This document shows positions 2,907 through 44,424 of a stretch of 64,000 nt of DNA, one piece after another. The position numbers and the translations under genes are program-made. Numbering within the stretch: position 1 is the first letter of the stretch; the number at the start of each line of letters is the position of its first letter. The stretch lies in contig CBDDQA010000006.1 in the NCBI GenBank assembly GCA_965232605.1, positions 510,548-574,547 on the forward strand. Direction: 5' to 3'. A model generated the notes under the pieces. The model was not told where the DNA came from, ran no database searches, and worked only from the letters and a program-made list of their open reading frames with translations. This DNA is from an uncultured Candidatus Binatia bacterium. Lineage in GTDB: Bacteria; Desulfobacterota; Binatia; Bin18.

Positions 2907-3728
2907 ATGAAACAGCAACTCGCCGCGTACACGGCTGAAGTGCTCTTCCCGGAACGCGAGAAATTTACCGCCCCGCTGCTCCTGCTGCCGGGTTTATGGA
3001 CAGGAAGCTGGATATGGCGGGAAGTCGCCTGGGGCCTTTCTCAGCGGGGTTGGTCGTGCTGGGCGCTTGATCGGTACGGGCAGCCCGCAGCCCGCCGGCG
3101 TGATCCTGTCTCTCTTGACGATCATCTCACGACCATTACCACAGCCAGCGCTACGTTCGATTGCCCACCCATTGTCATCGGTTTTGATCTGGGCAGTCTC
3201 CTCGCACTCCTCGCCGCCACCCGTCTGCAACCGCGCGCCCTCGTCTGCATCTCTCCCCTGCTGCCCTGCAACTGGCAAGCCGACCTGCGCCCGGCCCTGC
3301 CTCTGGTACGACTCGCCGCCCTGCCCGCACTCCTGTGGAATCGCGCCCATCCTCCTCCGTCTCGTCGGCTCGCCCGCGATTTTCTTTTTCACACGCTTCC
3401 GGCCGGGCTGCACAACGAGTTATACGCTCAGCTTGAGCCGGACTCCGGCAGAGTCGTCCGCACCCTCACCCGAGGTCAGACCGATTTTCCGGCCACTCCC
3501 CTGCCCTGTCCCAGTCTGGTTGTCTGGGGACAGGCAGACCGTATGGTGCCTGCTCCAACCGTACGTTGGCTCGCAGACGCTCTCCAGGCCGCCAGCCTGA
3601 GCTACCCGGACCAAGGCCACTGGCTGCTGGCCGGTCCACAGGCGGCGACCCTGGTCGGGGATGTTCATCGCTGGTTGATTCGCTCGCTGGGAGAAGCGCT
3701 GCTATTACCTCCGGAAGAAGACGAATAG
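2907..3728 (+). CDS. alpha/beta hydrolase fold protein
   Basis: LLLPGLWTGSW, a GFDLGS nucleophile-elbow-like motif, and the overall length and architecture of alpha/beta hydrolases. Confidence 0.55.
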   Translation: MKQQLAAYTAEVLFPEREKFTAPLLLLPGLWTGSWIWREVAWGLSQRGWSCWALDRYGQPAARRRDPVSLDDHLTTITTASATFDCPPIVIGFDLGSLLALLAATRLQPRALVCISPLLPCNWQADLRPALPLVRLAALPALLWNRAHPPPSRRLARDFLFHTLPAGLHNELYAQLEPDSGRVVRTLTRGQTDFPATPLPCPSLVVWGQADRMVPAPTVRWLADALQAASLSYPDQGHWLLAGPQAATLVGDVHRWLIRSLGEALLLPPEEDE

Positions 3729-3850
3729 GCATAGCCGTCGAACGCCCAGCCTGTCCGGTCTCTATCGTTCTCTCCCCTCCCTGGTATATTAAATGGGCAG
3801 TGAAAGAGAGGGCTCCAAAAAATCGGACACTGACCTGTGACCCGGCTGAT

Positions 3851-4774
3851 ATGAAACGTCTGTCCAGTCAAATCCTTCCAGTAGAGAAACCCATAGGAGA
3901 GGACGGGCTTGAAAACAGGGTCATCTGCGGCAACACGCTCGATGTTGTGCCATATTTACCGAATAACTTTGTTGACCTGCTCATCCTGGACCCGCCCTAT
4001 AATCTTTCCAAGAACTACAATGGCGCTCCGTTTCAGGAGAGAGGGAAGCAAGAATATCAGAGATGGTTTCAGCGTGTCCTCGAAGTCTTAAAACCGACCC
4101 TGAAATCGAATGCAACCGTGTATGTATGCGCGGACTGGAAGACTTCTGTTCTGATAGCACCTCTCCTTGAATCCCAACTTCGGATTCGCAATCGCATTAC
4201 GTGGGAGAGGGAAAAAGGGCGTGGAGCGAGGACAAACTGGAAAAACAACACGGAAGATATATGGTTCGGCACCGTATCGGACTCGTATTATTTTAATGTT
4301 GACGCCGTTAAGCTCAAACGTAAGGTAATTGCCCCCTATACCGTGGACGGCAAGCCAAAAGACTGGCAGCCAGAAGAGCATGGCAACTATCGCCTGACTC
4401 ACCCATCAAACATCTGGACGGACCTCACTGTACCGTTTTGGTCCATGTCCGAGAACACAGACCATCCGACTCAGAAGCCCGAGAAACTGCTCGCTAAGCT
4501 TATTCTTGCCAGCTCAAGAGAGTACGATTTCATTCTTGATCCCTTTCTTGGCAGCGGAACGACAGCGGTTGTTGCGCGAAAATTGGGCCGCCGTTTTTGC
4601 GGTATAGAGCTTAGCCGAGAATACTGCTGTTGGGCGCTGAAGCGCCTCGAACGCGCGGCTGATGACCCGACTATTCAGGGATATGCGGGAGGGGTCTTCT
4701 GGGAAAGAAATTCACTGAGCGATCAGTCGAAAGCGGGCGCGTCTCGGATACTGCAGAAAGAGCTTTTCTTATGA
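3851..4774 (+). CDS. DNA methyltransferase (N6-adenine/N4-cytosine, beta-class: motif IV DPPY precedes motif I FLGSGTT)
   Basis: LILDPPYNL, TQKPEKLL and DPFLGSGTT motifs. ATG at 3851. Markedly lower GC than the flanks. Overlaps the downstream gene by ATGA. Confidence 0.8.
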   Translation: MKRLSSQILPVEKPIGEDGLENRVICGNTLDVVPYLPNNFVDLLILDPPYNLSKNYNGAPFQERGKQEYQRWFQRVLEVLKPTLKSNATVYVCADWKTSVLIAPLLESQLRIRNRITWEREKGRGARTNWKNNTEDIWFGTVSDSYYFNVDAVKLKRKVIAPYTVDGKPKDWQPEEHGNYRLTHPSNIWTDLTVPFWSMSENTDHPTQKPEKLLAKLILASSREYDFILDPFLGSGTTAVVARKLGRRFCGIELSREYCCWALKRLERAADDPTIQGYAGGVFWERNSLSDQSKAGASRILQKELFL

Positions 4775-14204: not shown

Positions 14205-15542
14205 TCAGCTTGTGAGTCTCTGCTTCTCCAGATATTTCGCCTCTGACTCCAGCAGCCTCAGTTGTTCATGTCGCGGTTCATACGAATGCTCGTGTGGATT
14301 CTCTGACGCCGTCTGATGGTATTCCCTTTTTGCCCGGCCATACGTCGCGGAAGTACAATACTCAAACAACTCCTTTTTACTATTTCTTTTTCGGATGACT
14401 CTTGAGGAAACATTCTTGAATCCATGTGCAAGAAGAGACTCCTCATATAAGTCGGGCGTGGCTACAGGGACACCATAGAAAGTACTATTGCCTATAATGT
14501 AATGTACTTCAGCGCTAGGTTTCAGCGCGGATTGAATCGATCGGATGTGTTCGTCCATATCATAAAAATATTTCTTCACGTACAGCGAAAGTAGTTCGCT
14601 ATTCTTTTCTCCGGTCCTTTTAATTTTTTCCACAACCGTATCCAAGGAATGCATCGCGCACTCATGGGTAGGCGACCAAGTGGTTAAGCGGCTGGTTGCA
14701 ATTCCCCAGGTGCCTCCAATTGCCTGCCAATCCAGTTCACCCGCCTCTCGCGCCTCGCCCAGAAAACCAAGCCAAAACATATAGGGACGAAGCTCCCGGA
14801 TATAGCTTATACGATTTGGGTAGGGGGGAGAGGTAACAATGGCATCGAATTGTGACTCCTCATGAAAGGGAGAAGCGCTATTGTGCAAGTGAACGACCCC
14901 TTTTCCCGATAAAGGCGCTATCGCACTGGCAATGAAGGCTTCTGCATAGCTCTCGAAGGCCAGAAGAATTTCCTGCTTCGAGTGAGATACGGTGTCATCC
15001 TGAAAGGAAACCGAAACGTGATTAAACGCTGCGGCGGAATACTCAATAGCCACTCTAGCGAACGCTATCCAGAGTAGAGAAAGAAAGCCAGCATTCTTCG
15101 GTTCGTCGATTATTTTGACGAGCGAAGCGCGAAGTTGGGCAAGTATTATGAGCGTATCCCTACTCCACCATCTTTCGATGTTCTTGAGGGGCGGAAGCCA
15201 CAAAGATTCATCCTGAGTGTCTGTGGCGCTGAGAACAACCTTCCGTAAGGCGTCTCGAAGGGCCGCTATATCGTCTCCAGACACATTCGCGAGCTTGATG
15301 TTGCCGAACCAGACCAGAAAAGGGTTAATATCAAACAACGTGCTTTTGTAGCCGCGTTCTGCGGCCACAACTCCGGTAGTGGCTGTCCCTGAGAATGGGT
15401 CGAGGATGTTACGGGTGTCTGGCAAATCGTCAATGATCCTGCCAACAAGTTTGACCGAGTAGGCAGGAGTCAGCCGCAGCCATCCGTGCCGCCCCAACGA
15501 GCGATTATATTTGAAGGTGTAGTCCGAGCGCTGAGATATCAT
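14205..15542 (-). CDS. DNA methyltransferase (motif I LDPFSGTATTG, motif IV TSPPYPN; N4C/N6A amino-methyltransferase)
   Basis: Methyltransferase motifs present. GC about 48%. Overlaps the upstream gene by ATGA. Confidence 0.75.
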   Translation of the reverse strand: MISQRSDYTFKYNRSLGRHGWLRLTPAYSVKLVGRIIDDLPDTRNILDPFSGTATTGVVAAERGYKSTLFDINPFLVWFGNIKLANVSGDDIAALRDALRKVVLSATDTQDESLWLPPLKNIERWWSRDTLIILAQLRASLVKIIDEPKNAGFLSLLWIAFARVAIEYSAAAFNHVSVSFQDDTVSHSKQEILLAFESYAEAFIASAIAPLSGKGVVHLHNSASPFHEESQFDAIVTSPPYPNRISYIRELRPYMFWLGFLGEAREAGELDWQAIGGTWGIATSRLTTWSPTHECAMHSLDTVVEKIKRTGEKNSELLSLYVKKYFYDMDEHIRSIQSALKPSAEVHYIIGNSTFYGVPVATPDLYEESLLAHGFKNVSSRVIRKRNSKKELFEYCTSATYGRAKREYHQTASENPHEHSYEPRHEQLRLLESEAKYLEKQRLTS

Positions 15543-16333
15543 TCCGGTCGTAGTAAAGTTTCTAAAATACCTTCAATTTCTGTCCGAATTACCTGCCCGT
15601 TCGCTTCGAAAAAACCCGCAAGATCATAACCAACGACCTCATCCATAAAATCGTACAGTGATGTAAAAGGTCCGGAATCTCGGACACCTGTCAAAATACC
15701 GCATCGGTTATTGCGATAGCGTAACACAATGTCGGAATCAATTTGACTCGAGAAGACCGCAAATACTGGAAGATAGCCGTGCGACCACGCTACGGTGGCG
15801 TTATCAATATCAGCGTTCTGTCTCTTCGAATCTTTGCTCTTGTAGCCCTGACGTATCTCAAATACCGCCCCACGACGAGGAACCTCTGGTATGTCAAGCT
15901 GCCTGCAGTAGTCTACCAGCCACTTTCGAGTTCTCTCTCGAACATCTCTTCTGGCAATGTCCTCTAGTCCCAAACGACCGTCAAGGGACAATTTCTTTGA
16001 CTCGCCCGACCGAGTTTTTGTGGAGTAAGACCACGTCAATGATGCTCGGTCCACATATCCCGCAGCGTCGAACAGGACTTCACGGAAAAGCCGCTCACAG
16101 TCAATTCCAATTTGTCGATAGACGGATGTCATTCCTCCAGCGGCTTTGTGGGCTGCGTACATCAAGTCAGAATCCAGCCCTATCCATGAATAAAAGGGAT
16201 CGCTTCCATATAAATTTTTGAAGTCGATAAGTACCAAGCCCTGTTTTCGTGCCGAGGAGCCGAATTTCGGGGTGTAATATGCACACTTACGGATCGGCTC
16301 AAGGAAAATTCCAAGATAATCGATTTCAGACAT
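15539..16333 (-). CDS. putative Type II restriction endonuclease (cognate of the 14205..15542 methyltransferase)
   Basis: Low-GC ORF translationally coupled upstream of the methyltransferase. No homology is assignable from sequence alone; AVFEIRQGYK is a possible ExK motif. Confidence 0.45.
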   Translation of the reverse strand: MSEIDYLGIFLEPIRKCAYYTPKFGSSARKQGLVLIDFKNLYGSDPFYSWIGLDSDLMYAAHKAAGGMTSVYRQIGIDCERLFREVLFDAAGYVDRASLTWSYSTKTRSGESKKLSLDGRLGLEDIARRDVRERTRKWLVDYCRQLDIPEVPRRGAVFEIRQGYKSKDSKRQNADIDNATVAWSHGYLPVFAVFSSQIDSDIVLRYRNNRCGILTGVRDSGPFTSLYDFMDEVVGYDLAGFFEANGQVIRTEIEGILETLLRPE

Positions 16334-40149: not shown

Positions 40150-40197
40150 AGCGTTCTGGCCCTTCGGTCGTGGTTCAGTTTGCATTTTTCCTCCACC

Positions 40198-40326
40198 CCC
40201 GCCCCTTCGACTTCGCTCCGCTACGCTCAGGGTGAGCGGAAACGCTGCCGTTCGTCCTGAGCGTAGCCCCGCAGGGGCGAAGTCGAAGGGCGCTCAGGAC
40301 GGGCCGCGCCCACTCAGGGCGAGCGA
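40198..40326. repeat. complex imperfect palindrome with CTCAGG-containing direct repeats (two-segment ~30-bp arms around a 24-nt centre)
   Basis: ccccttcgacttcgc...gctacgctcagg // cctgagcgtagc...gcgaagtcgaagggc. CTCAGG or its complement occurs 4 times. Confidence 0.5.
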
Positions 40327-40473
40327 GGGACACTGGCTTTGAAACTGAACCACTACCGCCCTTTCCAGTTTGATGCAGGAAACATAATACTGGAATAGGA
40401 TGACCCGTACAGCCCTCTTTCTTGCGAGACCATCCGTCTTTGGAGAGAAATTTCGAGTAGACAAGAGGTTACA

Positions 40474-42192
40474 ATGCAAATCTTTCCGACAGGATCAGAA
40501 ATTGAGCGCGCGGCCAACTTACTGGTGAAAAAGTACGATGTTACCGCACAACTCCTGGGAAAGCTCTTCGGTGCTAAGCAACGTGACAATGCGAATAGCA
40601 TTTTGAAATCGCTCGGAAGCGAGCGATTAACGACTTTAGCTGTTGCCCGTCTTCTCGTTCGGCGGGAGGGGCCAGAATTGTTTACAGGAAGCCGAGAAGA
40701 TACTCGCGAACTCCGGCTCCATCTGCTCAGACAACTCGCTGATGAGAAAGTGAAAAAGCTATTCCAGCGGCATATGAGCGATAGTAATGTTTCTTCTCCG
40801 TCACATATGCGTCGGCCATTAGCAAGGAGAAAGTGGTCCGCGGGCAAGCATTGGGCTAGGGATTTCGTAAAGGAGCTTGGGTTCCCACCCATTTTCGCGG
40901 GTATCGCATCGCCCCCCAAGGTTCCAACCATCCAGGATGTGCCCCCGTTAGAAGTCCCTCCTGAACTGGCCGAATTCCAAAAGGGTTTGAAGACAAAGAT
41001 GCTGGATGTCCTGGGACAAAACGGCGACAAAACTCGTTGTGTGGTTACTCTGCCCACTGGTGGGGGAAAGACACGCGTTGCTGTCGAGGCATTCATCGAC
41101 TGGATGCAGCCTCGCTTTGCGGAAGGAAAATACCTCATATGGATAGCGCAAAGTGAGGAACTTTGTGAGCAAGCTATCGCTTGTATTGAGTCGATGTGGG
41201 GTTCGCGACAGTTTGTTGGGCCTCTGCGCATATATCGATTTTTCGGCGGCCGCGACGTTCCAGAGGAAGATCTACGCGGTGGAGCCGTTGTGGCGAGCAT
41301 TCAACAACTTCACAGCCGGATCAAGTCGGGCGACAAATCGTTCGAGACAATTCTTTCCAATACCGGAGCAATGATTATCGATGAGGCCCACCGTGCTGTT
41401 TCACAGATGTACAACGGATTGTTGGACGCTGCTGAAAAGACATGCGGAAGCGATCTGTTTCCAATCTGCGGCCTCACCGCTACGCCAGGACGCCCTGACC
41501 AAGAGACAGACAAGCTCGTAGGCCGATTTGAAGCATACCTGATTAAGCCAGACCTCGGCGCGGAATATGAGAAGTCCCCGCTACGATATTTTCGTGAGCA
41601 TCAGTTTCTTGCTCGGGCATACCATAAATTGTACGGCTCCGGTCCCGAATACACGCTTACGGATGATGAAGCCGAGAAGGTCAAGAGAGAGAAAGATTTA
41701 CCGGCTGAATTTTTGAAACGTCTCGCCGCTGACAGACGGAGAAACCTTCTGGTCATACGTCGTCTTCTGGATTTACCCAAGGGAACTTCCACCCTTGTGT
41801 ATGCCTGCACCGTAGAACACGCCTATTTCCTATCAGCCCTCCTGTCAGCCCAAGGACGAAGCTCAGGAGCCGTCTCCTCGGATACCCCTATCACCCTGCG
41901 ACGTGCGCTAATCCATGATTTCAAAGAGCAAAAAATCGAGTTTCTCTGCAATTATGGAGTCTTGACCACTGGATTCGATGCGCCAAAGGTCAGATGTATC
42001 GCGCTCTGTCGGCCGACGACGAGTGAAGTTCTTTATGAGCAGATTATAGGCCGTGGACTTCGGGGACCTAAATTTGGTGGGACCCCAGAATGCACCATCA
42101 TCGACTTCGCTGATAACATCCTCCGACTCGGTCCTCCCCTTGCTTACAGACGGTTCGAGGACTTTTGGAGTGACCAAACTACTGAGCAATAA
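40474..42192 (+). CDS. SF2 DEAH-box helicase (COG1061/Type III Res-like core) with uncharacterised ~170-aa N-terminal domain
   Basis: Motif I TLPTGGGKT, motif II IIDEAH, motif III LTATP and motif VI QIIGRGLRG. GC is about 50% in a ~64% background. Confidence 0.75.
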   Translation: MQIFPTGSEIERAANLLVKKYDVTAQLLGKLFGAKQRDNANSILKSLGSERLTTLAVARLLVRREGPELFTGSREDTRELRLHLLRQLADEKVKKLFQRHMSDSNVSSPSHMRRPLARRKWSAGKHWARDFVKELGFPPIFAGIASPPKVPTIQDVPPLEVPPELAEFQKGLKTKMLDVLGQNGDKTRCVVTLPTGGGKTRVAVEAFIDWMQPRFAEGKYLIWIAQSEELCEQAIACIESMWGSRQFVGPLRIYRFFGGRDVPEEDLRGGAVVASIQQLHSRIKSGDKSFETILSNTGAMIIDEAHRAVSQMYNGLLDAAEKTCGSDLFPICGLTATPGRPDQETDKLVGRFEAYLIKPDLGAEYEKSPLRYFREHQFLARAYHKLYGSGPEYTLTDDEAEKVKREKDLPAEFLKRLAADRRRNLLVIRRLLDLPKGTSTLVYACTVEHAYFLSALLSAQGRSSGAVSSDTPITLRRALIHDFKEQKIEFLCNYGVLTTGFDAPKVRCIALCRPTTSEVLYEQIIGRGLRGPKFGGTPECTIIDFADNILRLGPPLAYRRFEDFWSDQTTEQ

Positions 42193-42206
42193 CGATCGGA
42201 ATCGCC

Positions 42207-42947
42207 ATGATCAAACTCAGCGTCAACGTCAATAAAATCGCCACCCTGCGCAACGCTCGGGGCGGCGACCAGCCGAATGTCGTCCGGGCCGCCCAGACCT
42301 GCATCGATGCCGGCTGTCACGGCATCACCGTGCATCCCCGCCCGGACGGTCGCCATATTCGCTATCAGGACGTGAGAGACCTGGCCGCCCTGCTCGCAGA
42401 CCACAGCAGTATTGAATTCAATATCGAGGGCTATCCTTCGACCGAGTTTCTGGATTTGGTCTGCCAGGTGCGACCGACCCAGTGCACCCTGGTGCCCGAC
42501 CCGCCAGACGTACTGACCTCAAACACGGGCTGGGACCTCAGCGGCGATGTCACCCGGCTCGGCCAAGTCTTACAGCGTTTACACGACAAGGGCATACGGA
42601 CCAGTCTTTTTCTCGATCCGGATAACGAACAAGTGGGACGAGCAAAAGAGGTCGGCGCGGACCGGATTGAACTCTACACGGAACGCTATGCCCGTCTCTT
42701 CGGCAGTGCCGAGCAAGACCAGGTTTATGCCGCGTATCACGCCGCAGCCCAAACAGCACAGGAAGCCGGCCTGGGGCTGAATGCGGGCCACGATCTTAAC
42801 CTGGAGAACCTGCCCTACTTTGCCGAGCGTGTACCCGGTCTGCTCGAAGTGTCCATCGGCCACGCCCTGATTTGCGACGCGCTCTACATGGGGCTGGTCG
42901 CAAGCGTGAAAGCCTATCTGCGCGCGCTCAAGCCCCAACAAGATTGA
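42207..42947 (+). CDS. pdxJ: pyridoxine 5'-phosphate synthase
   Basis: MIKLSVNVNKIATLRNARGG...HPRPD...GHDLN, a PdxJ hallmark. Confidence 0.85.
   Translation: MIKLSVNVNKIATLRNARGGDQPNVVRAAQTCIDAGCHGITVHPRPDGRHIRYQDVRDLAALLADHSSIEFNIEGYPSTEFLDLVCQVRPTQCTLVPDPPDVLTSNTGWDLSGDVTRLGQVLQRLHDKGIRTSLFLDPDNEQVGRAKEVGADRIELYTERYARLFGSAEQDQVYAAYHAAAQTAQEAGLGLNAGHDLNLENLPYFAERVPGLLEVSIGHALICDALYMGLVASVKAYLRALKPQQD
42869..42930 (+). repeat. direct repeat copy 1 (3' end of pdxJ); ~90% identical to 44420..44482
   Basis: ctgatttgcgacgcgctctacatgg...gaaagcctatctgc is present at both sites. Copy 2 still encodes LICDALYMELAASAKAYLHAL. Confidence 0.65.
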
Positions 42948-42978: not shown

Positions 42979-43263
42979 ATGGCTACACAAACCATCAAAT
43001 CGACGTATTCGCTGGATATCGAATCCGTAAACATATTGGAGGCATTGGCACAACGCTGGAACGTGTCGAAGTCCGAAGTGCTCCGGCGTGCTATTCGGAG
43101 AGTAGCGATGGAGTGGGAGCCAGAGAGTAGTACGGCGCTCAGCGCTCTTGACCAATTGCAGGCTTCTCTCCGTAAGCGCAAGGTCAATACCACACAGTGG
43201 GCACGGACTCTCAATGCTGAGCGCCAAGCGGCTGCTCCACGGCTATCTTCCAAGTCTCAATGA
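42979..43263 (+). CDS. vapB: ribbon-helix-helix antitoxin (VapB/CopG-like)
   Basis: 94 aa immediately upstream of a PIN gene, overlapping it by ATGA. Contains VSKSEVLRRAIRR. Confidence 0.6.
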   Translation: MATQTIKSTYSLDIESVNILEALAQRWNVSKSEVLRRAIRRVAMEWEPESSTALSALDQLQASLRKRKVNTTQWARTLNAERQAAAPRLSSKSQ

Positions 43264-43631
43264 TACACTTGGATACGAGCTTTCTGATCCAAGCCCTGAA
43301 ACCGGGAGCCCCTGAAGATCGCAAACTGCGAATCTGGATTGAAGAAGGCGAAACACTGGTAATGAGTACAGTCGCCTGGGCAGAGTTCCTGTGCGGCCCA
43401 CTTGACCGCTCCGAGATGGAATTGGCCACTGAAATCATCGGCCAGCGTCGAGATTTCACGCCGAAGCACGCTACGATTGCCGCCGGTTTATTTAATGAGT
43501 CGGGCAGGCGGCGTGGCTCGTTGATTGACTGCATGATTGCAGCAACGGCGCTCGCCGATGGCGCGCCCGTCGCGACTGCGAATGTGGCGGACTTTCGTCG
43601 ATTTGAGGATTCCGGCCTGACTATAGCATGA
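43260..43631 (+). CDS. vapC: PIN-domain toxin VapC
   Basis: MIHLDTSFLI...ATANVADFRRF carries the PIN acidic residues. Confidence 0.75.
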   Translation: MIHLDTSFLIQALKPGAPEDRKLRIWIEEGETLVMSTVAWAEFLCGPLDRSEMELATEIIGQRRDFTPKHATIAAGLFNESGRRRGSLIDCMIAATALADGAPVATANVADFRRFEDSGLTIA

Positions 43632-43803
43632 GGGAATTTACTCAACGCTAGTGAGAGCCTACCTGAACGCTCTCAGGTATGAGGCGTAAATCAGCGCGAG
43701 GACAGACCACCCGGCACCGATACGAAGAAACCGCCGTCAGTCGCTTGACACGCCATACCTGATATGAATGCACATAAAAATACACATTAAGAGGTGTAAA
43801 GAA

Positions 43804-44007
43804 ATGCGAACCAATATCGAGCTTGATGCCGAACTTGTTCGGGAGGCGCAGGAATTGAGCCGGATAAAGACCAAGAGGGAACTGATCCACCAGGCGCTGA
43901 AAGAATTCGTCAACCATCGGAAGTGCCTTGATCTGCGGAAACTTGAGGGTTCGAACCTCCTCGACCCGGAGTATGACCACAAGAAACTGCGTGCCGCTGG
44001 GGCCTGA
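43804..44007 (+). CDS. vapB: VapB-type antitoxin (MRTNIELDxELV family)
   Basis: MRTNIELDAELVREAQELS is typical of VapB antitoxins. Lies upstream of a PIN gene. Confidence 0.6.
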   Translation: MRTNIELDAELVREAQELSRIKTKRELIHQALKEFVNHRKCLDLRKLEGSNLLDPEYDHKKLRAAGA

Positions 44008-44013
44008 AACTGC

Positions 44014-44424
44014 ATGTACTTGGTCGATACCTCCGTGTGGGTCGATTACATCCGGGGCCGAGATTGCCAGCACGTCGACTTCCTGCGAGACCTGCTGTCG
44101 AATCCTACCGCCGTCTGGATTACGCACCTGATCTATATGGAGATTCTCCAGGGCGCACGCGACACGGCATCTTTTGATCGACTGCGAAGCTACTTCAGCG
44201 GACAACAATTTTATTCATTCAGCGACATGACCGCAGGTCACACCTCTGCCGCTCGCATCTACCTGGATTGCCGCCAACGCGGTGTCACCGTGCGCTCGAC
44301 TGCGGACTGTTTGATTGCGGCGTGCGCCATACAGTCCAAGACGACCCGGCTGCACCACGACAGAGACTTCGAGCGAATCGCCCTCGTCTTCCCGGCGCTG
44401 AAAGAAAAGAGCTTCCTCGGCTGA
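44014..44424 (+). CDS. vapC: PIN-domain toxin VapC
   Basis: MYLVDTSVWVDYIRG...DCLIAACAI...HDRDFERI. Confidence 0.75.
   Translation: MYLVDTSVWVDYIRGRDCQHVDFLRDLLSNPTAVWITHLIYMEILQGARDTASFDRLRSYFSGQQFYSFSDMTAGHTSAARIYLDCRQRGVTVRSTADCLIAACAIQSKTTRLHHDRDFERIALVFPALKEKSFLG

Follow-up and report, generated by a model that had tools for sequence, protein, structure and literature searches.

Why should a helicase gene of low guanine plus cytosine (GC) content stand between two housekeeping genes, and could it serve in defence? The question is raised by a stretch of 64 000 nucleotides from an uncultured Candidatus Binatia bacterium (assembly GCA_965232605.1, contig CBDDQA010000006.1, positions 510 548 to 574 547), to which, at its full length, we refer as the window; there a gene for a superfamily 2 (SF2) helicase is found between the genes for an M20 peptidase and PdxJ. 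A sequence-only reading of the window had proposed this helicase as a candidate single-gene defence module. We favour, with a probability of roughly 0.45, the reading that the helicase belongs to a distinct SF2 family, acquired horizontally and circulating with the gene pool of defence islands, whose members act on foreign DNA as ATP-driven motors, alone or as helpers of restriction-like systems.

The open reading frame (ORF) of the helicase, which makes up the whole module, occupies positions 40474..42192 of the plus strand (572 aa and a stop codon), an assignment supported by the ORF list, Pfam, homologues and substitution rates. The sequence-only reading had started the feature at 40190, taking in upstream intergenic DNA; its account of a 572-aa ORF with all quoted SF2 motifs and a ResIII-like core was borne out by motif scan and by Pfam, which found ResIII (PF04851) at residues 184–339 (E = 3.7e-13) and Helicase_C at residues 428–530 (E = 4e-11). 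The quoted motifs are all intact and spaced as expected. From motif scan and alignments, motif I (Walker A), TLPTGGGKT, was located at residues 192–200 (41047..41073, plus strand), motif II, the DEAH box IIDEAH, at residues 301–306 (41374..41391, plus strand), and motif VI, QIIGRGLRG, at residues 523–531 (42040..42066, plus strand), 41 residues before the C-terminus; motif III reads LTATPGR (residues 334–340), and a Q-motif (residues 166–173), motif Ia (WIAQSEELCEQ) and motif V (VLTTGFDAP) are present as well.

In two alignments, of 91 and of 77 sequences, P194, T195, G196, G198 and K199 of motif I and D303, E304 and H306 of motif II were invariant; so were, in motif VI, Q523, G526, R527 and G531 among the 91 sequences, joined by G528 and R530 in the set of 77. 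Five cysteines (C189, C231, C332, C445 and C540; window positions 41038–42093) were either invariant or present in 76 of 77 sequences, down to 41% identity. Compared with Binatia orthologues, the ratio of non-synonymous to synonymous substitution rates (dN/dS) was 0.20–0.23, i.e. the gene is under purifying selection. Invariant motifs and this ratio together indicate that the gene is functional.

What kind of motor is it? The SF2 motor (RecA1 and RecA2) extends from the Q-motif to a conserved C-terminal LAYxRFxDFW, 40969..42168 on the plus strand, as delimited by NCBIfam, by a profile search of the Protein Data Bank (PDB) and by Foldseek; the full-length AlphaFold2 model had a mean predicted local distance difference test score (pLDDT) of 80.5. 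All three comparisons led to RadD (YejH of E. coli; NF053632; PDB 6jde and 7r7j), the best match in both sequence and structure, with ∼26% identity. The NCBIfam RadD core model scored 129.2 bits over residues 186–551, and the PDB profile search gave RadD (6jde) at E = 4.5e-36 ahead of SauUSI (7clg) at E = 2e-18; by Foldseek the top matches were all RadD, followed by SauUSI, a DEAD-box protein, Hef and XPB. The motor is thus of RadD/SauUSI type and ATP-driven, and its substrate would be DNA.

The helicase is not, however, a RadD. The likeness begins with RecA1, continues over the inter-domain insert and RecA2 and breaks off shortly after motif VI; the score falls far below the equivalog cut-off of 720 bits. 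The match ends at residue 364 of 586 of RadD, which continues for ∼220 residues where the helicase stops; with the helicase ending so soon after motif VI, it has no counterpart of the RadD C-terminal region, in which zinc-binding and SSB-interaction functions reside. Conversely, RadD lacks the N-terminal extension that the helicase carries, and among the five invariant cysteines only the last one is shared. Enterobacteria carry RadD in the core gene set of their chromosomes, whereas the family described here is sparse and horizontally transferred. These facts bear in both directions on the alternative that the gene is a mobile helper of DNA repair or recombination, a RadD-like motor for stalled forks or recombination intermediates that spreads by its usefulness and is not phage-specific: RadD is its closest solved and curated relative, yet membership in RadD fails, both by score and by the missing C-terminal 220 residues. 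We return to this alternative below.

Other helicases with which the motor could be confused are more distant. SauUSI-type type IV enzymes (PADLOC mREase_IV) have a homologous helicase core (PADLOC E = 8e-14), the match being restricted to positions ∼240–566 of profiles of 945–953 positions; SauUSI has an N-terminal PLD nuclease and a C-terminal target recognition region, and the helicase has neither (no PLDc was found by Pfam). The ResIII domain is shared with type III Res, and there were weak matches to type I and type III restriction-enzyme models; family members are often adjacent to type I/III restriction systems, but in comparison with type III Res and type I HsdR the helicase has no endonuclease and no HSDR_N, and no Mod or HsdM/S neighbours it in the window. 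With respect to Hachiman, no HamB match was obtained in PADLOC, and neither HamA nor another uncharacterized partner gene is adjacent. Of the DISARM (defence island system that is associated with restriction–modification) components, DrmD is the SNF2 helicase of class 1 systems, and DrmE is described as a protein of unknown function, whereas the helicase is clearly SF2; apart from a weak DpdF-type Helicase_C match no model of this kind was hit, and the window has no homologue of DrmA, DrmB, DrmC or DrmMII.

A housekeeping RNA helicase of ribosome biogenesis or of the degradosome might come to mind, as weak DEAD-box matches did appear; they arise from generic SF2 similarity. DEAD-box RNA helicases carry DEAD in motif II and our protein carries DEAH; the RhlE, CshA, SrmB and DbpA models scored at most 17 bits against cut-offs of 507–750; the best relatives (RadD, SauUSI, Hef, XPB) are DNA motors; and the gene is present in some and absent from other close relatives. 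The chance that it is such an enzyme appears to us minute. The sequence-only reading had allowed for an N-terminal domain belonging to a housekeeping RNA helicase; nothing of the kind was found, the protein being neither RadD nor an RNA helicase.

In front of the motor stands a domain specific to the family. Residues 1–150 (40474..40923, plus strand) were delimited by model and profile as an all-alpha domain of nine helices, the second half of which is basic; modelled alone, these residues gave the nine helices with pLDDT 83.7 and a predicted template modelling score of 0.77. The sequence-only reading had found no recognizable motif in this region, and our searches agree with it: full-protein searches of Pfam, NCBIfam and PADLOC produced no match within residues 1–180, and viral structures (BFVD) compared by Foldseek yielded nothing at E < 1. 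Structural matches were partial and unconvincing: helical regions of Cas13d, SAP-type DNA-binding domains and death-fold bundles. One could speculate that the protein is a self-contained, nuclease-free immune helicase, in which the N-terminal bundle is a death-fold-like or SAP-like sensor or signalling module; with a helical interaction domain ahead of an SF2 motor it would be a bacterial analogue of RIG-I-like receptors in layout, and on sensing foreign nucleic acid it would either obstruct this mechanically or call in unlinked effectors. We regard this version as quite improbable.

How widely does the N-terminal domain occur? Its profile, run against 1.8 billion protein representatives, found only 91. 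Twelve matches were examined in full, and all but one proved to be the domain at the N-terminus of the same type of helicase or of a shortened copy; apparent short proteins among them were truncated helicases, and the exception, a match of 732 aa, was a repeat protein hit by chance. Judging by these matches, the domain is confined to the N-terminus of helicases of this family. Its residues 71–145 are basic in every family member (median isoelectric point 10.1), with R78, R81, R114, K120, W121 and W127 conserved; from this basic character and these residues, the second half of the domain probably binds nucleic acid.

How did the gene come to its present place? The helicase has a GC content of 51.5% (51% at third codon positions, GC3), a value so low being reached by only 3.6% of windows of the same size across the 64 kb. 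The M20 gene has 62.1% (GC3 74%) and pdxJ 60.3% (GC3 70%); the compositional contrast on which the sequence-only reading had built thus exists, with flanks at ∼60–62% and not at the 64% it had given. Its proposal of horizontal insertion is confirmed more directly. The genomes closest to that of the window are metagenome-assembled genomes of uncultured Candidatus Binatia. The order M20, helicase, pdxJ is found in the window, in L006, in L007 (identical to L001) and in L094, the helicases of the last three loci having 81–87% identity (loci of relatives are cited by L-numbers here and below). In two related metagenome contigs with the same flanking genes the helicase is missing: in L087 the M20–pdxJ gap is 85 bp and the flanking proteins are 87–98% identical to those of the window; in L086 the gap is 168 bp and the flanking proteins are ∼81% identical. 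These empty sites show horizontal insertion directly. The gene is syntenic in close relatives, which the sequence-only reading would have counted against insertion had the GC been native; as those copies have the same foreign GC and similarly close relatives have no copy, the insertion stands.

Alignment of the filled sites (window, L006, L007) with the empty ones (L087, L086) delimits the extra segment as 40417..42198, ∼1.78 kb, with bounds approximate to within a few bases; it consists of a leader of ∼57 nt, the ORF and a trailer of a few bases. Immediately 5′ of it lies the older M20/pdxJ intergenic block (40359..40416, plus strand; CCAGTTTGATGCAGGAAACATAATACT … GTACAGCCCT), the same in filled and empty sites, the retained part ending with GTACAGCCCT at 40416. 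This block presumably carries the pdxJ promoter; a strict sigma-70 scan found no consensus promoter in the intergenic block or in the helicase leader. Behind the helicase, on the same strand and 14 bp from its stop codon, pdxJ begins (42207..42947, plus strand; Pfam PdxJ, 295 bits), a housekeeping gene and the second gene in this arrangement. As the gap is so short and no terminator-like site was found on the plus strand between the two genes, helicase and pdxJ are probably co-transcribed from the old pdxJ upstream region.

The insertion appears to be of some age. Synonymous divergence (dS) of the helicase between Binatia genomes, 0.25–0.35, equals that of the flanking genes (0.23–0.54), which points to one old insertion followed by co-divergence with the flanks; the foreign GC of the inserted gene is still un-ameliorated. 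The flanking genes had dN/dS values mostly of 0.05–0.13 (0.18–0.25 for PrpF), so that purifying selection on the helicase is weaker than on most of them.

Could the gene, as a replication or transfer helicase for example, be what remains of an integrated mobile element, or its cargo? IS21, Mutator or DDE transposases near some loci of relatives, and one full-length copy on a 396-kb plasmid of Bacillus badius, speak for such an origin. Comparison of filled and empty sites, on the other hand, revealed the insertion of a single gene with no second gene, integrase, rep gene, att-like repeat or target duplication. The B. badius plasmid, where the context of the helicase is uninformative, was the only one of 72 556 plasmids with a full-length relative, and none was found in 50 697 INPHARED phage records or in 2.9 million IMG/VR contigs; matches among phages and IMG/VR were to the motor domain only, with at most 30% identity and starting after residue ∼140. 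We consider mobile-element cargo highly improbable, and by the same searches an origin of the helicase in phages or plasmids was ruled out.

How far, then, has the family spread? A protein search with the helicase returned 1394 relatives; the full-length ones (∼578 aa, 57–95% identity) belong to Planctomycetota, Thermoanaerobaculia, Brocadia, Chloroflexota, Desulfotomaculia and others. When one genome per species (185 579 species) was scanned by pattern, 420 places were seen to encode a relative, some species having more than one; many are from halophilic or alkaliphilic Bacillaceae, from Clostridia and from Bacteroidota, at 41–54% identity. At 75 loci the difference between the GC of the gene and that of its host had both signs, from +0.12 (Evansella, L030) to −0.16 (Fimbriiglobus), and the neighbour-joining tree of the helicases mixes phyla and is incongruent with taxonomy. 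We read tree and composition as evidence that the family is transferred between phyla; its scattered distribution, together with the phage and plasmid searches, characterizes it as a sparse, horizontally transferred, cellular accessory gene. The family is new in that it has no curated model in Pfam (beyond the generic helicase domains), NCBIfam or PADLOC 2.0. A limited search of the literature on RadD and defence islands, on COG1061 and defence, and on single-gene helicase defence found no description of it, which is absence of evidence. As a separate observation, in L096 (5085–11294) fragments of a gene of glycoside hydrolase family 94 enclose the helicase together with an ORF of 120 aa; the arrangement suggests that the helicase was inserted into that gene and disrupted it.

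Does the gene keep company with defence genes? The neighbours were surveyed at 80 genome loci with 1427 ORFs by all-against-all clustering. At least 21 of the 80 loci have an identified defence gene nearby, a lower bound since annotation of the loci is incomplete, and a figure whose weight for a defence reading is suggestive and not statistical, as it has no matched genomic background beside it. The genes near the helicase include a ThsB TIR protein with RhuM (L002); type III restriction–modification (RM) genes with a KAP NTPase (L003/L004); type I HsdM/S/R (L022, L068, L071, L046); GmrSD-type enzymes (L008, L084, L085); a methyltransferase and Res pair (L009); SF1 helicase–restriction endonucleases similar to the PADLOC candidate defence family PDC-S37 (L020, L026); SauUSI-like enzymes (L039, L048, L049); BrxC/BrxF of the bacteriophage exclusion (BREX) system (L048, L073, L024); TmtA of Tiamat (L073); OLD/GajA-like ATPases (L036, L054); and a type II restriction enzyme (L057). 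A Pfam survey of 244 neighbours of at least 300 aa within 5 kb of the helicase, done in three batches, ranked ResIII first among neighbour families in batch 1 and second in batch 2 (15 proteins altogether), with nSTAND3, MZB, PLDc_2, Methylase_S and GmrSD_N recurring. On the basis of its gene neighbourhoods, we consider the helicase a candidate for a role in defence.

No partner gene is conserved: no neighbour cluster occurs in more than 10 of the 80 loci, the largest, at 10, being a UvrD-type helicase, and a phmmer comparison of 32 small downstream ORFs found no small downstream ORF in common. Two local patterns may be recorded here. Dense islands occur in Bacillaceae (L073, 687–5180; L048, 16935–21116), with Tiamat TmtA (979 bits), BREX BrxF/BrxC, SauUSI-like and DISARM genes within ∼20 kb. 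In a distant Bacteroidales subfamily (∼41% identity), ORFs for which Pfam gives nothing credible are tightly linked to the helicase on its upstream side (268 aa at 10–12 bp in L076–L078; 197 aa at 3 bp in L080 and L082); the subfamily may work as a two-gene unit.

One clade has a more regular neighbour. In it, six of seven helicases, from six Bacillaceae genera, adjoin a complete class 2 DISARM core of DrmA, DrmB, DrmC/HNH and DrmMII (L039, 10001–16774, and the equivalents in L048 and L073; L031, L054, L057), and in three genera the helicase is upstream and its stop codon overlaps the start of drmA by 4 bp. The PADLOC definition of type II DISARM requires DrmE, and deletion of drmE, an additional gene of class 2, reportedly abolishes class 2 DISARM protection (10.1101/2021.12.28.474362); still, no hidden Markov model match to DrmE or DrmD was obtained for the helicase or for its Bacillaceae relative, nor one to DrmE for the neighbours tested. 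The identification of the helicase as DrmE itself was rejected on this outcome of a model search. Since the helicase adjoins the DISARM core and no DrmE was detected, it may stand in for DrmE in the Bacillaceae islands. Co-inheritance with class 2 DISARM, and translational coupling in three genera, suggests for this clade a helper role.

Do restriction-like systems of several genes, more generally, have in this protein an obligate accessory subunit, for instance a stand-in for DrmE or an extra motor for type I or type IV enzymes, so that the Binatia copy would be an orphan, repurposed or with partners unlinked to it? The DISARM clade, with its drmA overlaps and no DrmE among the neighbours tested, accords with that, as do the HsdR, SauUSI-like or GmrSD-type genes that lie 3–99 bp from the helicase in L068, L071, L048, L049, L084 and L085. 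But most loci, including those of all members at least 60% identical to the window protein, have no common partner; the window's own clade is not DISARM-linked; the window itself has no DISARM, RM motor or BREX homologue; and in Binatia purifying selection acts on a solo gene. We find it unlikely that the helicase is an obligate subunit.

The repair alternative is affected by the same neighbourhoods. The commonest neighbour cluster is UvrD-type, RecG adjoins the helicase in L019, an effector domain is lacking, and at least four Binatia genomes have kept the gene stably, under purifying selection, at a housekeeping locus; all this would suit a helper of repair or recombination. Against it stand the rarity of the family (only 420 places across some 185 000 species genomes), its absence from closely related genomes, and the recurrence of RM, DISARM and BREX neighbours, with one clade co-inherited with DISARM. 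On balance a repair helper seems rather unlikely, although it and the obligate subunit are both serious rivals of the favoured reading.

What weighs against the defence reading itself? The helicase has no nuclease, toxin, signalling or other effector domain, an unusual state for a defence system of a single gene, and no PADLOC 2.0 model covers the protein, the matches being partial ones to helicase parts of type IV enzymes and to PbeA. Within the 64-kb window there is no homologue of DISARM, BREX, HsdR or GmrSD, and housekeeping genes surround the helicase, ∼24 kb separating it from the closest RM-like genes. Elsewhere too some contexts are plainly housekeeping (RecG, FtsK, glycoside hydrolases), as are most neighbours in batch 3 of the Pfam survey, largely from Bacteroidota loci at 41–47% identity. 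Finally, old and kept at one housekeeping site, the Binatia copy resembles, by its divergence and placement, a domesticated gene more than it does a rapidly cycling defence cassette. It is the missing effector domain, the housekeeping local context and the old, stable Binatia copy that hold our estimate for the defence-associated motor at the value given at the outset. Of the proposal of a single-gene defence module there remains, then, the presence of defence genes near relatives in other phyla, while in the window the gene is not part of a defence island and the protein has neither effector domain nor defence model. The accompanying statement that the locus has no partner gene was correct, the neighbours being M20 and pdxJ.

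If the helicase is indeed such a motor, the course of events might be as follows. The family would form part of the mobile accessory gene pool present in defence islands. Its product would be a translocase or branch-remodelling motor working on the DNA of invading phages or plasmids, the basic half of the N-terminal domain binding nucleic acid ahead of the SF2 motor; it could do so by itself, or assist restriction-type systems by feeding or licensing them. In Binatia a single gene was inserted between the pdxJ upstream region and pdxJ, with which it is probably co-transcribed.

Some features around the module should be kept apart from it. The palindromic repeat that the sequence-only reading had noted upstream exists, but it is a GC-rich miniature inverted-repeat transposable element (MITE) of 194 bp (40165..40358) that is independent of the helicase module, recognized by its inverted repeats and by comparison of filled and empty sites. 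Internal hairpins lie between its 17-bp terminal inverted repeats, its core is single-copy within the window, and it is flanked by 5-bp target duplications, CCCTT, at 40160–40164 and 40359–40363. Three related genomes have the helicase at the same site and no MITE, so the MITE is a separate, later insertion; the same position is empty in L006, L007 and L087. It was inserted just upstream of the conserved start of M20 (MGDYLQ…, 40149) and supplies an ATG, creating a false N-terminal extension of 12 codons of the M20 ORF (apparent start 40185). An Rfam search around the helicase gave no match at E of 0.1 or less.

On the other side, the vapBC island that had been noticed 3′ of pdxJ was verified by Pfam as two pairs, RHH+PIN and VapB+PIN; Pfam likewise bore out the M20 peptidase. 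The interval between pdxJ and an abhydrolase gene is a second variable spot: in the window (42979–44424) it holds the two vapBC pairs, in L006 (12575–14977) one VapB-like gene and other DNA, in L007 (12467–12518) it is ∼50 bp long, and in L087 (4928–6193) it contains ∼1.26 kb of other sequence. Farther away, the lowest-GC stretch of the window (0.48) lies at 14205–16333 on the minus strand; it encodes a protein of 445 aa that weakly matches N6_N4/D12 DNA methyltransferases and whose ORF shares 4 bp with another of 264 aa, for which Pfam gave nothing; the two may be an imported type II RM pair. Another low-GC region, 3566–4774 on the plus strand, codes for an N6_N4 DNA methyltransferase (137 bits) for which no partner is obvious; the listed start of its ORF is probably too far upstream.

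What the family means depends on which reading proves right. Should the family give protection from phages or plasmids, it would be a rare example of a defence gene that consists of a helicase alone. If instead it is a portable motor for DISARM-type or RM-type systems, it would bear on the roles of such less conserved parts of DISARM as DrmE and DrmD. If it is a mobile repair helicase, RadD-type motors would be seen to circulate horizontally with a new DNA-binding front end. In each case the N-terminal domain poses a new puzzle at the level of fold within a well-defined, testable family, and the Binatia locus, where a single gene came to separate another from its upstream region and sister genomes hold both filled and empty alleles, offers an unusually clean natural experiment.

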